Source: a virus. From it: a stretch of DNA of 64,000 nucleotides. Shown here in pieces: positions 12,548 to 43,110 of the stretch. Below the pieces are notes generated by a model. It made no database searches, had not been told where the DNA came from, and saw only the letters and a list, made by a program, of their open reading frames with translations. The position numbers were made by a program, and so were the translations under genes. Where the stretch lies: IMG/VR virus record IMGVR_UViG_3300027631_000014, positions 12,809 to 76,808 of that record, one strand, 5' to 3'. Within the stretch, counting starts at the first letter, position 1. The number at the start of each line of letters is the position of its first letter.

Positions 12548-13267
12548 ATGGAAAAAAACATCCCAACAGAAATTATCGATTTACCTTCAAAAGGCTTATT
12601 GTACTCACCAGAAAATCCATTATCAAGTGGTCAAATTGAAATGTGTTACATGACCGCAAAACATGAAGATATTTTAACTAATCAATCCTATATATCAAAA
12701 GGAACAGTATTAGATAAATTATTACAAGCATTGATAGTATCTAAAATTAATTATAACGATTTAGTTACGGGTGATAAAAATGCTATTATGGTAGCTGCTC
12801 GTATTTTAGGTTATGGTAAAGATTATACATTTAATTATGATGGTAACGAATATACAGTTGACTTAACAACAATTGATAATAAACCATTTGAACATGCTAA
12901 TAAAGGTGTTAATGAATTCAATTATACTTTACCGTCTACTAACACAAACATCACTTATAAAATCTTAACTCATGGAGATGAACAAAAGGTACAAGCCGAA
13001 TTAGACGGCCTTAAAAAAATTAATGCTAATTCGTCTCCAGAACTTTCCACACGTTTAAAATACCTTATTACATCAGTAAATGAAGATCGAGAAACAAAAA
13101 CAATTCGAGAATTCGTTGACAATCATTTGCTAGCTCGAGATTCGAGAGAATTAAGAAAGCACGTTAAAGAAAACCAACCAGATGTTGATTTAACTTTTTT
13201 TCCCACCAGTGATTCAAATAGAGTCGATATACCAGTTGGGATTAAGTTTTTTTGGCCTGACTTCTAG
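12548..13267 (+). CDS. Tail/baseplate-hub assembly chaperone (gp26-like)
   Basis: LPSKG..Y, MTAKHEDIL, RILGYG motifs; ends FFWPDF; lies between tube and tape measure. Confidence 0.75.
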   Translation: MEKNIPTEIIDLPSKGLLYSPENPLSSGQIEMCYMTAKHEDILTNQSYISKGTVLDKLLQALIVSKINYNDLVTGDKNAIMVAARILGYGKDYTFNYDGNEYTVDLTTIDNKPFEHANKGVNEFNYTLPSTNTNITYKILTHGDEQKVQAELDGLKKINANSSPELSTRLKYLITSVNEDRETKTIREFVDNHLLARDSRELRKHVKENQPDVDLTFFPTSDSNRVDIPVGIKFFWPDF

Positions 13268-38018: not shown

Positions 38019-38651
38019 ATGGAATTACTAAAAAAATCAAATGGGAACATTTCCCGCACCCCAGAACAAATAGAACAAATGATTGATGAAGCATCTATTC
38101 ATTATGGTAATTTTTTAAAAGCAGTAGGTTTTGACTTCACAGCAGATAAACAAACAGAAAACACACCTCGTCGAGTAGCTAAAGCATGGTTAAAAGATTT
38201 AATCATAGGATCAGTATCAAATGAACCAAATATTACTACATTTCCTAACGACGAAAATTATACAGGTTTAGTAATTCAAAGTGGTATTCCTATCACTAGT
38301 ATGTGTGCCCACCACAATTTAGCATTTACAGGATTTGCTACAGTAGCTTATATACCTGGAGAAAAAGTAATAGGATTAAGTAAATTAAATCGTATTGTAG
38401 AATGGTTCTCAAGACGTCCTCAAATGCAAGAATCACTTACTCAACAAGTACATGACTATATTTCAGACAAAATGGAATGTGAATCAGTAGCTGTAAGTGT
38501 AGCTTGTAAACATACATGTTGTTCACATAGAGGTATTAAACATCCATCTACAATGACTACAAATAAATTTAGTGGTGTATTTATGGAACCAAGTAATATG
38601 ATTAGAGATGAATTTTTACATGCAATATCTACCAATGGAGCAAAATTCTAA
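38019..38651 (+). CDS. folE: GTP cyclohydrolase I
   Basis: TPRRVAK, SMCAHH, GLSKLNR, RRPQMQE, HTC...RG. Confidence 0.95.
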   Translation: MELLKKSNGNISRTPEQIEQMIDEASIHYGNFLKAVGFDFTADKQTENTPRRVAKAWLKDLIIGSVSNEPNITTFPNDENYTGLVIQSGIPITSMCAHHNLAFTGFATVAYIPGEKVIGLSKLNRIVEWFSRRPQMQESLTQQVHDYISDKMECESVAVSVACKHTCCSHRGIKHPSTMTTNKFSGVFMEPSNMIRDEFLHAISTNGAKF

Positions 38652-39420: not shown

Positions 39421-39754
39421 ATTATTTGCTGGTATTGTGTTTGGAATTATAGCACAAATTATAGTTTTCTTTCAACTACAAGGTCAATTAAAATATGATT
39501 GGTTTAAGAATAACTATTGGTTAGTTGTCTTAATGGGTATACCCTCTTCTATGTTTTTTATGTATTCTGTGAAGAATTTAGTATTGGCATACAACGGAGA
39601 AATGTGGCCTTCAAGACTAATTGGATTTTCATTAGGTGCGATTGTGTTTACTTATTTTAGTTGGTCTTTATTTGGAGAGCCATTTACCACTAAAACTATC
39701 ATATGTTTAGTATTAGCTCTCTCTATATTAATGGTTCAATTGTTTATGAAATGA
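39413..39754 (+). CDS. Small 4-TM membrane protein (DMT/SMR-like)
   Basis: Four hydrophobic helices, LFGEP..KT..C..L. Confidence 0.6.
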   Translation: MNKLFAGIVFGIIAQIIVFFQLQGQLKYDWFKNNYWLVVLMGIPSSMFFMYSVKNLVLAYNGEMWPSRLIGFSLGAIVFTYFSWSLFGEPFTTKTIICLVLALSILMVQLFMK

Positions 39755-40272
39755 TGAAAGAAGACGAAGATAATTTATGGTGTAACTACAGTGGAATGCC
39801 ATCACCTATGTCATATATGAGGTGTGATAAATGTGATGAAGTTACATACGAATGTAAATGTAAAGAAAAAACAAATATGAATAAAGAACAACAAGAGCTA
39901 TTGGATGAGGCTTATAAGAATTATAAAAGAATCACGCATGAAACTAATGAAAAGAATCATTATGGTGAGTATTCCAAATGGGGTGATAACCCACTAATCT
40001 CAGGGGTTCAGCATTTAACAAAAGATTCATTTATTCAAATGATAAAAATTAATTCTGAGTTCTCTGAAAAGTGGGGATTGAAAATTGATGAACGAGAGTT
40101 GAGTTTGGAAGAGAGAATGGACTTAATCGATAAAATGCACCTTCGTTCCTATTCTGGTTGGCAAAATTGGAGTGTCGAAGAAATGGAGGATCGAATGAAT
40201 AACGATTGGAATATCCCAACCCGACTAATTACAGTAACATATAATAATAAAACAATAGAAAGCTATGAGTAA
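39751..40272 (+). CDS. Stand-alone ThyA-insertion-like protein (likely start 39877) with in-frame Cys-rich upstream peptide
   Basis: AYKNY, FIQMIKINSEFSEKWG, RELSLEER and NIPTRLI match segments of the ThyA insertions. Confidence 0.65.
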   Translation: MMKEDEDNLWCNYSGMPSPMSYMRCDKCDEVTYECKCKEKTNMNKEQQELLDEAYKNYKRITHETNEKNHYGEYSKWGDNPLISGVQHLTKDSFIQMIKINSEFSEKWGLKIDERELSLEERMDLIDKMHLRSYSGWQNWSVEEMEDRMNNDWNIPTRLITVTYNNKTIESYE

Positions 40273-40666
40273 AACAATACCTGTAAAATACAATGACGAA
40301 ATTGTTGGATATACAACAGACGAAGGAAAGACAATTCAATTTAATGATAGCGATGCATCAAAAAGGGTGAACGAAATGCTTAGTCAAAAACAAACGGTAT
40401 GGGTTTCATCAAGAGCGATTGGTGAAATTAAAAGTGACAACACGGTTGAAGAAAAAGAAAAGATATCATACGATATATCACACTTTGAAAACACAACGAT
40501 AAAACAATTGAAAGTTATGAATAAAGAACAAGCAAAAGACGCACTAATTGAAGTGCTAATGAATCAAGTAATGGACTTATCAATGATGTCTAAAATTGAA
40601 TTAGGTGATGATGTAATCGCTGAAATTAAACGACTAAAAGAAATTATTAATGATCAGACTCATTAA
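40265..40666 (+). CDS. Hypothetical protein (apparent fusion of two cassettes; internal start 40517)
   Basis: Internal AAGTTATGAATAAAGAACAA repeats the start of the 39877 protein. Confidence 0.55.
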   Translation: MSKTIPVKYNDEIVGYTTDEGKTIQFNDSDASKRVNEMLSQKQTVWVSSRAIGEIKSDNTVEEKEKISYDISHFENTTIKQLKVMNKEQAKDALIEVLMNQVMDLSMMSKIELGDDVIAEIKRLKEIINDQTH

Positions 40667-40850
40667 AACACAAGAAGAACTTGAAGCATATCAAAAAGAG
40701 GTTCGTAACAGACAGTACGAAACAAATCCTGTGACAGCTGAGTTTGGTGATGGATTTGATAATCTAGAACCTTACAATTTTGATATTGAATACATAAAAA
40801 TAACAAGAGTTGATAATCACGAAATTATAGAACGAGTAAAATATGAATAA
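40650..40850 (+). CDS. Hypothetical protein
   Basis: 66 aa; ends YE* overlapping the next ATG. Confidence 0.5.
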   Translation: MIRLIKTQEELEAYQKEVRNRQYETNPVTAEFGDGFDNLEPYNFDIEYIKITRVDNHEIIERVKYE

Positions 40851-40998
40851 CCTAGATAAACTGACAGTAGATAAAGTGGATAAATTTCTTAAAGAATTGT
40901 CTGAGGCGAATGTCGGTATAAGAAGAAAGTTATTAGCCATGAAAAAATTTTTAGAGAAAGAAACTATATTATTAAATAACAATGAACAAACTAAATAA
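40843..40998 (+). CDS. Hypothetical protein (51 aa, MNNLDK start; not in ORF track)
   Basis: Open frame overlapping both neighbours; thyA-like 5' end. Confidence 0.5.
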   Translation: MNNLDKLTVDKVDKFLKELSEANVGIRRKLLAMKKFLEKETILLNNNEQTK

Positions 40999-41236
40999 AA
41001 CATACACAGACCCATTTCTAGGAGAAATAGAACTTTTAAAAGTTGGTGAAACATCTATGAACCTTATGGGTGAATCGGTAGTTCATACAATATACACAGA
41101 CAAATTTAATGGACATTACTATATTGATACTTGGACTACAACAGGGGGTGACCCAATTCCAATGAAGATAATACCTAAACGAGTAATAGATAAAATAATT
41201 CAAATAGAAAACGAAAAATTACCAAATGGAAAATAA
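40982..41236 (+). CDS. Hypothetical protein (MNKLNKTYTD start)
   Basis: First 31 nt are 27/31 identical to the thyA 5' end. Confidence 0.55.
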   Translation: MNKLNKTYTDPFLGEIELLKVGETSMNLMGESVVHTIYTDKFNGHYYIDTWTTTGGDPIPMKIIPKRVIDKIIQIENEKLPNGK

Positions 41237-41669
41237 ACTAGATAAAGAACTAATAACACTAACAAAAAGTGATGTAATGTTTCTTATAGCAAGTGCTATG
41301 GGTTATGGATGGAATGAAGCATCTTCACATAGAAGTATTGAAGAATGTAATAAACGAAAAGAATTAGAACAAGAAAGATTACTTGAATGGACTATACATT
41401 TATCTAATGGATTTCTTAAAGAACATACTCATCACAACCCATATGAAATGTATGATGTGAGTAAGGTTGAAAAATTAAAAGAAAAGTATAACTTTGAATT
41501 GATTGATGATGTAACTCATAGGATTAATGATAAACCTTATTTTGTAGAAAGTTACAATTCTGGTTTAATGCAATTTTTAGAGTCGTACAAAGATAAAAAA
41601 ATGTACATTTATAGTAAATCATTACCACTCAAGCCTTGGGCCACCACTATTAGAGCAATTGTAATTTAA
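41226..41669 (+). CDS. Hypothetical protein (MENKLDK start)
   Basis: 147 aa; shares aataaactagataaa with the thyA 5' end. Confidence 0.55.
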   Translation: MENKLDKELITLTKSDVMFLIASAMGYGWNEASSHRSIEECNKRKELEQERLLEWTIHLSNGFLKEHTHHNPYEMYDVSKVEKLKEKYNFELIDDVTHRINDKPYFVESYNSGLMQFLESYKDKKMYIYSKSLPLKPWATTIRAIVI

Positions 41670-41670
41670 A

Positions 41671-43110
41671 ATGAATAAACTAGATAAACAATACACAGAC
41701 CTACTCCAAGACATCTTAGATAATGGAGTAACAAAAAGTGACCGTACAGGCACAGGAACGCTATCAGTATTCGGAAGACAGATTCGTCATAAAATGAGTG
41801 ATGGGTTTCCTTTACTCACAACTAAAAAGATGGCTTGGAAATCAGTGGTAACTGAATTGTTATGGTTTTTAAGAGGAGATACCAACATCAAATACCTTGT
41901 AGATAATGGTTGTCATATTTGGGACGGTGATGTGTATAAGAATTACAGAAGTAAAGCCTCTATGAGTAACGATAAAGATTGTTTAGTTAGACAAGAAGAA
42001 GGTTCGTTGCTTAAAGAAATGAGACTTTTTACACAAGAAGAATTCATCAACAAAATAAAAACAGATGATGAGTTTGCTAATAAGTGGGGTGATTTAGGTC
42101 CCGTGTATGGGAAGCAATGGAGGAGTTGGGGTGAAAGATATTCATCTTGGGAAAAATTTGAAGGTGGGATTGTTCCTGATGGTGTAGAAATAAAAAGTTT
42201 TGTACACAAAGGATTAATGACAAGAAAAAAAATAAAAGGTATAGACCAAATCGCAAACCTTATCAACGACCTTAAAACAAACCCAGACTCAAGACGATTA
42301 ATGGTTTCAGCTTGGAATGTTGGAGAATTGGATTCAATGGTTCTTCCACCATGTCATTATGGATTTCAAGTTTATACAAGAGAGTTGAGTTATGAAGAAA
42401 GATGTGATGTGTTTCAATTTACTACTGATTTCAACAAGGAAACCAGAGAACACCTTAAAGAATTCAATAATGATATTATGAATGACTATAACACCCCAAC
42501 ACGAGCAATCTCTCTAATGTGGAATCAACGTTCAGTAGATACATTCTTAGGTTTACCATTCAATATAGCATCTTATGGTTTACTATTAGAAATCATCGCT
42601 AAAGCAGTTAATATGGTTCCTGATGAGCTAATTGGAAATTTAGGTGATGTACACCTTTACAGTAACCATGTTGAACAAGCAAAGGAACAGATTGGTAGAG
42701 AGCTGAGTTTAGAAGAAGTTAAAAAAATCTATATTGATTGGAGCTTGTTAAAAAGTTCTGGAGGTTATGCTGGTGATATTAAAGCAGATATTTGTGAATT
42801 CACTAATCAGATATTTATTGATGGGTGGAAAAATAATAAAGACCCTTTCACAGGTAAACCTTTAATTGAACTTGAATGTTTTTTATTAAACTCCATTCAC
42901 ACAAGGCAACCATTCCCATTACCAACATTAAACATCAATGCAGAGTTCTGGCCAACAGAAAATGGTTCATGTGGAGAAGGACCATTAGATGCTATAGCAA
43001 TATTTAACGGATTTAAAGATGATAATTTTTGTAAATGTTTATTAGAGGAAGATATACAATTAAGTAATTATGTATCTCATCCAAGCATTAAAGCACCTTT
43101 ATCAAATTAG
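41671..43110 (+). CDS. thyA: Thymidylate synthase with several large insertions
   Basis: DRTGTG, PLLTTK, ELLWF, GPVYGKQWR, LPPCH, QRSVD..LGLPFN, HLYSNH; 479 aa. Confidence 0.95.
   Translation: MNKLDKQYTDLLQDILDNGVTKSDRTGTGTLSVFGRQIRHKMSDGFPLLTTKKMAWKSVVTELLWFLRGDTNIKYLVDNGCHIWDGDVYKNYRSKASMSNDKDCLVRQEEGSLLKEMRLFTQEEFINKIKTDDEFANKWGDLGPVYGKQWRSWGERYSSWEKFEGGIVPDGVEIKSFVHKGLMTRKKIKGIDQIANLINDLKTNPDSRRLMVSAWNVGELDSMVLPPCHYGFQVYTRELSYEERCDVFQFTTDFNKETREHLKEFNNDIMNDYNTPTRAISLMWNQRSVDTFLGLPFNIASYGLLLEIIAKAVNMVPDELIGNLGDVHLYSNHVEQAKEQIGRELSLEEVKKIYIDWSLLKSSGGYAGDIKADICEFTNQIFIDGWKNNKDPFTGKPLIELECFLLNSIHTRQPFPLPTLNINAEFWPTENGSCGEGPLDAIAIFNGFKDDNFCKCLLEEDIQLSNYVSHPSIKAPLSN

Follow-up and report, generated by a model that had tools for sequence, protein, structure and literature searches.

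A window of 64,000 nucleotides (IMG/VR virus record IMGVR_UViG_3300027631_000014, positions 12,809 to 76,808 of that record) encodes, 1.4 kb upstream of its thymidylate synthase gene thyA, a small protein of 131 amino acids that is here called mini. Sequence comparison allows us to conclude with confidence that mini is a core-less paralogue of ThyA, and that the two proteins share swappable, position-specific peptide cassettes via recombination at conserved anchors. We further propose, at a probability of roughly 0.6, that mini is an expressed member of a large, phage-restricted and undescribed protein family, whose cassettes are exchanged under the guidance of these anchors and which would serve as an expressed archive of variants. 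The window is part of a 76.8-kb virus contig that is about 47% complete. Its nearest cultured relatives are the 160-kb Flavobacterium phages vB_FspM_immuto (Immutovirus), with thyA DNA approximately 73% identical.

Alignment of the two proteins of the window by BLASTP placed mini residues 66-130 on ThyA 230-292 (E 6e-8) and mini residues 11-67 on ThyA 87-140 (E 5e-6), in colinear order. A profile of the mini family, made from 129 members and used to search the ThyA of the window, found the same two places (E 6.4e-13 and 3.1e-9). The original prediction, made from the DNA letters alone, had described mini as colinear with two separate ThyA segments, and the alignment is significant for both segments in the pairwise as well as in the profile comparison. 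It had also claimed that the catalytic core is omitted, and this holds: the skipped ThyA residues 141-229 amount to 89 amino acids, and include GPVYG...PPCH and the catalytic cysteine. Mini lacks the segment holding PPCH, and one of its strands reads NNKTIE where ThyA has NQRSVD. Judged from the alignment, all catalytic residues are gone from mini. A longer, 173-residue form of mini (see below) gave no match to PF00303 at E<=1, and no Pfam or PHROG family matched it.

The two ThyA segments had been taken for insertion loops. This is correct for the second, which is a phage-specific insert, but not for the first, since ThyA 6-156 aligns in one unbroken stretch with residues 3-155 of the Enterococcus faecalis thymidylate synthase (PDB 3uwl), and the supposed insertion is thus the normal small domain of a long-form enzyme. 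Besides the hairpin insert, the second aligned piece takes in the two core beta-strands on either side of it. Because the aligned segments are an ordinary small domain and hairpin strands, mini is best described as ThyA with its core cut out, and not as a fusion of two foreign loops. The sole PDB sequence match of the first half of the family profile is weak (E 1) and falls on residues 78-139 of the E. faecalis enzyme. The small domain of thymidylate synthases is flexible and highly variable between organisms (PMC6479881).

Mini is composed of three constant anchors and two variable regions (VRs). The ratios of nonsynonymous to synonymous differences (pN/pS) given here and below are simple Nei-Gojobori proportions, uncorrected and from non-independent pairs, and cassette clusters were counted in the analysis sample of mini and ThyA sequences, not in the whole family.

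39877-40272, plus strand: mini ORF (open reading frame), 131 amino acids, core-less non-catalytic ThyA paralogue (BLASTP, profile, family survey).
39877-39924, plus strand: N-anchor of mini, residues 1-16, ending in AYKNY and matching DVYKNY of ThyA (family consensus; pN/pS 0.45).
39925-40017, plus strand: VR1 of mini, a class-1 cassette, residues 17-47 (cassette cluster of 15 members, mini-only in the sample).
40018-40116, plus strand: mid-anchor of mini, residues 48-80 (family consensus and alignment to ThyA; pN/pS 0.36).
40117-40212, plus strand: VR2 of mini, a class-2 cassette, residues 81-112 (largest VR2 cluster, 36 distinct cassettes, mini-only in the sample).
40213-40272, plus strand: C-anchor of mini (NIPTR...TIESYE) and stop codon (family consensus; pN/pS 0.46).

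The mid-anchor comprises the final two helices of the small domain, the first beta-strand and RELSLEER, with the DNA motif GAGAGTTGAGTT at 40094-40105. The ThyA that serves as its counterpart is intact, and its catalytic and nucleotide-binding residues Cys228, His229, Arg25, Arg208/209, Arg287, Ser288, Asp290, Asn298, His328 and Tyr330 are invariant across 121 relatives. Compared to solved thymidylate synthases, its true extra segments are residues 157-189, 240-280 (the hairpin behind the catalytic cysteine) and 346-459.

41671-43110, plus strand: thyA, 479 amino acids, intact long-form thymidylate synthase with extra inserts (Pfam PF00303, E 2.4e-90).
41947-42027, plus strand: VR1 of ThyA, residues 93-119, within the small domain, between DVYKNY and the helix EEFINKIKTDDEFANKWG (42028-42090).
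42091-42357, plus strand: ThyA residues 141-229, the catalytic stretch GPVYG...PPCH that is missing from mini (alignments).
42139-42237, plus strand: third variable insert of ThyA, residues 157-189, after the WRxW motif (alignment to solved thymidylate synthases).
42403-42486, plus strand: VR2 of ThyA, residues 245-272, phage-specific insert in the beta-hairpin after the catalytic cysteine (alignments).
42697-42900, plus strand: VR4 of ThyA, residues 343-410, C-terminal class-2 cassette starting RELSLEE, with GAGAGCTGAGTT at 42698-42709.

VR2 of ThyA is bordered on the left by RELS with GAGAGTTGAGTT at 42380-42391, and on the right by NTPTR from 42487. The insert at residues 157-189 is found throughout the ThyA clade and is not represented in the minis.

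Mini is part of a large family. In metagenomes, 1,110 proteins of 95-303 amino acids match at E<=0.01, most of them with a length of 110-135 and none with a Pfam domain or a name. When representatives of 50%-identity clusters were searched exhaustively with HMMER, 393 of them matched at E<=1e-3, and every one of the 150 top matches is short. Relatives occur at 53 IMG/VR loci. They often form tandem arrays, which reach eight matching ORFs in L005, and usually lie a short way upstream of thyA. Three minis are present on a 217-kb contig in which no ThyA was detected, and on another contig a mini lies 37 kb away from thyA. The view of mini as a free, sequence-variant module of the variable ThyA segments is in agreement with this family, and a survey of the relatives found co-occurrence with thyA, tandem copies, and variable loops with exchange. 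No relative was found in a pattern scan of 185,579 prokaryote species (one genome each), nor by tblastn in 50,697 phage records (E<=0.01), and the ESM Atlas yielded no usable match for mini. A literature search turned up no account of the mini family or of cassette variation in ThyA.

The size of the family also decides whether mini is a one-off, decaying deletion derivative of thyA, the outcome that the original prediction had named as speaking against itself. Mini does resemble thyA with internal deletions, and a degenerate second 3' end is located just downstream. However, the relatives number more than 1,100 and form 393 clusters at 50% identity, their length and anchors are conserved, and pN/pS is below 1. 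The family survey thus refutes a pseudogene, and we regard its probability as negligible.

The family consensus consists of the constant anchors MNKEQQELLDEAYxNY, EEFINKCKTDxEFSEKWGLKIEERELSLEER and NIPTKLITITYNNKTIESYE, and the two regions between them are without consensus. As far as can be read from the aligned members, the mini scaffold is constrained and has a strand consensus of its own, consistently distinct from that of ThyA. The strands read LKIEERE and KLITITY in minis versus GFQVYTRE and RAISLMW in ThyA, the mini version being more polar. This bears on a possible role of mini as a ThyA-binding regulator, which would dock via its hairpin strands on a ThyA monomer or on a complex for deoxynucleoside triphosphate synthesis, and so modulate the synthesis of deoxythymidine monophosphate. 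The hairpin in question belongs to the dimer-interface sheet of thymidylate synthases, the two strands kept by mini match it, and the gene lies only 1.4 kb from thyA. A docking role is, however, very improbable, as the strands are mini-specific and more polar, minis are present in contigs where no ThyA was found, and neither the number of paralogues nor the cassette diversity would be explained by it.

The ThyA genes of the clade share the anchors of the minis and carry variable regions of the same kind, and in both the variable regions are filled with discrete types of cassettes, 20-60 amino acids long, that start after RELSxEER and end at NIPT(R/K). The sample contained 145 VR1 clusters and 162 VR2 clusters, of which 31 and 24, respectively, have both ThyA and mini members. 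Pairs scoring at least 40 bits numbered 69 between VR1 of ThyA and VR1 of mini and 86 between VR2 of ThyA and VR2 of mini, compared to 0 in both cross-position controls, and many pairs are 80-100% identical across the whole cassette. The VR1 region of the window's own ThyA is 65% identical over 54 amino acids (anchors included) to the mini VR1 of loci L044 and L032. VR4, which starts with RELSxEE, draws from a pool that overlaps VR2 of ThyA and mini but not VR1, and the VR4 cassette of the window occupies the VR2 hairpin position of ThyA P0397, whose VR4 site is empty. Since the pools are position-specific and VR4 shares that of VR2, there are two classes of cassettes, set by their anchors, and class 2 is portable between sites.

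Within the minis, the pairing of VR1 with VR2 is near random, with 180 type combinations among 211 where 190.5 +/- 3 were expected. The VR2 type of the window's mini occurs together with 30 different VR1 types, and its VR1 type has 25 VR2 partners. This near-random pairing, together with VR2-type cassettes at a third site of ThyA, argues for autonomous modules on a shared constant frame rather than for the single discontinuous domain on the ThyA surface that the original prediction had proposed for the two loops.

Exchange of cassettes in the relatives is recent and ongoing. At locus L011, the mini and the thyA of the same contig share 117 nucleotides that are 100% identical, from GAGAGTTGAGTT (RELS) to AATATCCCAACCA (NIPT), while the sole other similar segment is 69% identical. 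The tract is bounded exactly by the anchors, which indicates recent gene conversion. L011 and L042 are 99.8% identical from the mini mid-anchor through thyA, yet their VR1 cassettes differ, and L041 has the same thyA as these two with another mini VR2. Chimeric proteins point the same way: in P0283 and P0281 the N-terminal part of a mini is joined exactly at VR2 to the C-terminal half of a ThyA, and P0284 has the N-terminus of a mini on a ThyA from VR1 onward. In the metagenome protein P0280, a mini is cut right after RELSLEER and fused to a Fringe-like glycosyltransferase domain, so the left anchor of class 2 can also join unrelated genes. Furthermore, in contigs of at least 90% identity from four metagenomes the anchors are covered 10-30 fold deeper than the variable regions. 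The contigs skip 39896-40056 (VR1 of mini), 40112-40213 (VR2 of mini) and 41930-42034 (around VR1 of ThyA). Many of them run from anchor to anchor with different sequence between, several replace VR2 of ThyA, and in one close relative the ThyA VR2 site is empty, with 27 nucleotides encoding a canonical hairpin turn. Loop exchange by recombination, one of the functions that had been suggested for mini, is hence demonstrated in relatives, but the window shows no recent exchange between mini and ThyA. The sequence between the anchors of its two genes is unrelated, as had been noted, and the two carry different cassettes.

The anchors had also been said to be conserved at the DNA level. The 12-mer GAGAGTTGAGTT is common to mini (40094) and thyA (42380), and is the longest word that these two genes share, but taken alone it is within chance, as a shared word of at least 12 occurred in 36 of 300 codon shuffles of thyA. 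When one mismatch is allowed, the motif marks all three left borders of class 2, the third at 42698 before the C-terminal insert (three sites versus 0.21 expected; 0/100 shuffles), and within the 64 kb this left-end motif is found only in mini and thyA. It recurs in 34 loci, three of which are copies of the window itself. Across loci, the codons of the anchors are mostly rare ones: GAG in 41/46 (background 0.22), TTG in 41/46 (0.19), AGT in 46/46 (0.28) and ACC in 39/44 (0.15). Codon conservation is strong at most constant positions of the minis. The conservation of anchor codons would be expected if recombination had repeatedly homogenised the anchors, or if their DNA were selected for its use as homology arms.

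The pN/pS values were 0.36-0.46 across the three mini anchors and 0.13-0.29 within cassette types, in both mini-mini and mini-ThyA comparisons (0.14-0.29 for mini-mini). One VR1 cassette of 61 residues has 90% protein identity between mini and ThyA at a pS of 0.55 and a pN of 0.04. Since pN/pS is low within types, the cassettes are old, constrained protein modules rather than slack loops. Purifying selection on cassettes and anchors suggests that the mini-proteins are probably made and useful, and we take the selection data as support for expression, not as proof.

Structure prediction is consistent with a folded product. With the family alignment, AlphaFold2 gave a confident, compact model of mini, with a predicted local distance difference test score (pLDDT) of 84, above 90 in all anchors, and a predicted template modelling score (pTM) of 0.72. 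The helices and strands of this model correspond one-to-one to elements of ThyA. The AlphaFold2 model of ThyA itself was poor (pLDDT 60). An exhaustive structural search of the PDB with VIA-align gave no hit at Z >=5 (best Z 3.9), which shows neither a new nor a known fold, and the predicted homodimer of mini scored 0.10 against a mark of 0.42, which counts neither way.

Diversity and selection of this kind could also indicate a counter-defence or host-interaction repertoire, in which the cassettes would bind or decoy variable proteins of hosts or competitors, for example a sensor or inhibitor that recognises ThyA, and the minis would be free decoys or display scaffolds, with the diversity maintained by frequency-dependent selection. 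The very many discrete, old cassette types, each under purifying selection and freely recombining, would be expected from such a function, as would the display of the modules on an enzyme that is early and probably abundant, and on a minimal non-catalytic scaffold. Genomes also hold several different types: among paralogues of one contig, same-type pairs were 0/33 for VR1 and 0/39 for VR2. Given more than 140 types, chance alone would produce nearly this result, and it was not used as evidence for a non-redundant repertoire. On the other hand, no partner, defence system or host correlation was identified, existing knowledge in Pfam, PHROGs and PADLOC-type resources links no ThyA insert to defence, diversity alone is no proof of an arms race, and the evidence is the same for the plainer archive. 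We therefore find a repertoire for host interaction distinctly unlikely.

In five relatives (L014, L015, L054, L055 and L057), thyA is split exactly at VR1 by an ORF of 335 amino acids with DUF7487, a treble-clef zinc ribbon and an HNH-like C-terminal motif (L014:6675-8814), and the C-terminal fragment begins with MNKE, like a mini. A GIY-YIG-like ORF of 299 amino acids interrupts thyA near residue 220 at L009:1997-4248, and the C-terminal fragment opens with a diverged copy of the small-domain helix (EEFxxKxKTDxEF) directly before PPCH, an arrangement near that of mini. No group I or II intron was detected at E<=0.01 when the split-thyA loci were compared with Rfam, and the interruptions thus resemble free-standing ORFs, not introns. 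The VR1-split thyA looks like the 'genes in pieces' organisation of thymidylate synthase. The split genes suggest a link of the locus to break-induced recombination, and with it a way in which core-less copies may arise.

From this follows another explanation, in which both cassettes and minis would be selfish or neutral by-products. The cassettes would be non-autonomous, in-frame mobile segments at permissive surface sites, and the minis debris left when homing endonucleases fragment and duplicate thyA, kept by their place in a recombination-prone cassette array and not by any function of the protein. The splitting of thyA by the DUF7487/HNH-like ORF in five relatives and by the GIY-YIG-like ORF in L009, with its mini-like fragment, is in favour of this explanation. 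So are the presence/absence polymorphism of VR2 in close relatives, the same cassette at different sites, the chimeras and truncations at anchors, the array with its conserved stop/start junctions and a relic junction, and the lack of minis in immuto. Debris would, however, hardly keep ORFs intact in more than 1,000 variants even though the cassettes are 20-60 amino acids long. It would not be expected to show purifying selection on a mini-specific scaffold and on cassettes (0.14-0.29 between minis), nor to expand to as many as eight copies per locus or to occur far from or without thyA. In addition, the 76.8-kb contig (47% complete) gave no match to DUF7487, GIY-YIG or HNH_3, and thus no homing endonuclease family. 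We consider a selfish or neutral origin unlikely on the whole, although it deserves some weight.

The reading that we prefer, that of an expressed archive, can be put together as follows. Mini would descend from a long-form phage thymidylate synthase, and has retained only the constant frame of two sites, namely the outer helices of the small domain (class 1) and the hairpin that follows the catalytic cysteine and bears a helical insert (class 2). Each variable site is filled by one of well over 100 discrete peptide cassettes, and the constant anchors, conserved in DNA and protein, would serve as homology arms. Recombination or gene conversion at the anchors then moves cassettes between minis, between mini and thyA and, for class 2, between two sites of thyA. 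Mini is presumably translated and would present the same autonomous modules as ThyA without the enzyme, whereby the phage would hold several cassette variants at once.

A number of observations weigh against this proposal. The pN/pS values are uncorrected and from non-independent pairs, and a cassette that passes through thyA might owe its integrity to selection on that gene. The cultured phage immuto has a variable ThyA but no mini gene, so the minis are dispensable for the ThyA enzyme. In the window itself, the two mini cassette types are mini-only in the sample, mini and ThyA carry different cassettes so that exchange is deduced from relatives, and the shared 12-mer is within chance. The start codon of mini is ambiguous (39751 or 39877), and a Foldseek search of the PDB with the mini model gave no match at E<=0.001. 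A listing of sequencing runs contained no RNA run with this stretch; this says nothing about expression, and was nevertheless counted on the negative side.

The ambiguity of the start codon stems from a short leader upstream of mini, and a relic of a second mini lies downstream.

39751-39876, plus strand: optional N-terminal Cys-rich leader (CxxC...CxC), in frame with mini (direct sequence reading).
40499-40528, plus strand: relic of the 3' end of a second mini gene with its junction, inside the next ORF (weak profile match with stops).

The reading frame of mini is open from 39703, and a start at 39751, where the ATG overlaps the stop of an upstream membrane-protein ORF (ATGA), would add a leader of 42 residues to give the 173-residue form. 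In relatives the same Cys-rich leader is present on the mini homologues P0004 and P0005, and is joined to the unrelated small cassette genes P0157, P0203 and P0237, being attached to whichever cassette gene heads the array. The C-terminal extension of ThyA (residues 434-456; 42970-43040) contains cysteines that are near-invariant across the ThyA clade, CGEGP ... FCKC, and that are absent from solved thymidylate synthases. Its FCKC resembles the CKC of the array leader, and these cysteines may form a metal site.

In the arrays of relatives, a small gene ends in ...ESYE and the next begins at an overlapping ATG AAT AAA. The stop codon of the window's mini overlaps the start of the next ORF at this conserved ESYE*/ATG junction, as it does in L014, and a relic of a second junction follows 250 nucleotides downstream. 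The relic encodes ...DKTIESYE* out of frame, followed by ATGAATAAAGAACAA, and lies within ORF 40265-40666, the downstream half of which (MNKEQAKD...) is a separate cassette gene in relatives (P0203). The ORFs starting at 40843, 40982, 41226 and 41671, the last being thyA, are consecutive and have near-identical N-termini, MN(N/K)L(D/N)K..., a pattern that points either to the duplication of gene starts or to recombination joints ahead of thyA. The mini region as a whole is an AT-rich block of small early-type genes, with a GTP cyclohydrolase I gene adjoining the array on one side (38019-38651) and thyA on the other. QueD, QueE and DpdA are encoded nearby in the cultured relative immuto (L001 8666-12983), and from these genes, together with GTP cyclohydrolase I, the DNA of these phages probably contains 7-deazaguanine.

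Housekeeping enzymes are normally among the least variable viral proteins, whereas here ThyA has swappable modules at three sites and is accompanied by more than 1,000 stripped-down paralogues, forming a family that has no name in Pfam or PHROGs and for which no paper was found. If the cassettes are binding modules, phages would have a new route to vary an interaction surface, beside diversity-generating retroelements and tail-fibre shuffling. If they are selfish, they would clearly exemplify non-autonomous, in-frame mobile segments restricted to one gene family, and would also amount to a natural experiment that reveals where thymidylate synthase can be split or accept an insertion. On either interpretation the anchors are a naturally validated scaffold for peptide display on ThyA. 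It may even be speculated, as a rather doubtful extension, that Immutovirus-like flavobacterial phages run an antigenic-variation-like system on ThyA, with modules at three sites and expressed scaffolds acting as a binding or decoy repertoire against factors of the host or of rival phages, and with anchor-guided conversion that is possibly triggered by endonucleases in co-infection.

Among known elements, a diversity-generating retroelement was rejected, as the variable regions differ wholesale in sequence and length and not at adenine positions. Inteins were rejected as well: cassettes of 20-60 amino acids compare with a splicing domain of about 130 or more, and the end residues are wrong (an N-terminal Cys/Ser and a C-terminal His-Asn followed by Cys/Ser/Thr would be needed). 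An in-frame miniature inverted-repeat transposable element (MITE) does not fit either, because one conserved end, GAGAGTTGAGTT, is not the reverse complement of the other, AATATCCCAACC, and the left-end motif is present only in mini and thyA within the 64 kb.

The long-form thymidylate synthases of Lactobacillus casei and E. faecalis (PDB 1lca, 3uwl) resemble the ThyA of the window, in which residues 6-156 align contiguously with 3-155 of 3uwl, including a small domain that is longer by about 50 residues (IWD to GPVYG). Mini differs in having no large domain, catalytic cysteine or substrate-binding residues, and the phage ThyA in having hairpin and C-terminal inserts that are absent from solved structures. 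Furthermore, the variation in the phages consists of discrete cassettes exchanged among paralogues, not of slow divergence between species.

The Rickettsia palindromic elements and other in-frame MITEs (PMC10969869) are likewise short in-frame segments at surface positions in enzyme genes, with presence/absence polymorphism and conserved ends. The ends of the cassettes are, in contrast, not inverted repeats, their interiors are hugely diverse where those elements repeat a consensus, and they are confined to thyA and its derivatives. The PeSLs of T4-type phages are short conserved gene-boundary sequences that act as recombination joints, shuffling small accessory genes in hyperplastic regions (Arbiol et al. 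2010, PMC2839356). The array that contains mini is similar in its conserved ESYE-stop/ATG-AAT-AAA boundary junction. PeSLs, however, are intergenic promoter/terminator cassettes that move whole genes, whereas the mini joints are coding, with overlapping stop and start, and the mini arrays have a second level of joints inside the reading frames.

Free-standing homing endonucleases of T4-type phages are known for 'genes in pieces' and for co-conversion of flanking markers (PMC2988022, PMC2790892). ThyA genes are a classic target, those of the relatives are split at VR1 or near the catalytic loop, and double-strand-break repair would give localised conversion of the kind seen. The system of the window differs in that no such endonuclease is in or near its mini and thyA, the cassettes encode none, and exchange also takes place in loci without one.

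In Neisseria (pilE/pilS) and Borrelia (vlsE/vls), surface variation is generated by gene conversion from silent cassettes. As in these systems, a full-length gene is found with nearby arrays of partial copies that lack essential parts, conserved flanks surround the variable segments, conversion tracts are bounded by conserved blocks, and many combinations exist. A conversion tract between mini and thyA within one genome, not seen in the window, was found in the relative L011 (117 nucleotides). No dedicated recombination signal or enzyme was identified for the minis, the protein that receives the cassettes is a viral housekeeping enzyme located in the cytoplasm, and the transfer in the L011 lineage may run from thyA to mini. 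Unlike the silent pilS and vls copies, the minis have a conserved ATG overlapping the upstream stop, full ORFs, coupled translation signals and a selected scaffold, and are thus probably expressed.

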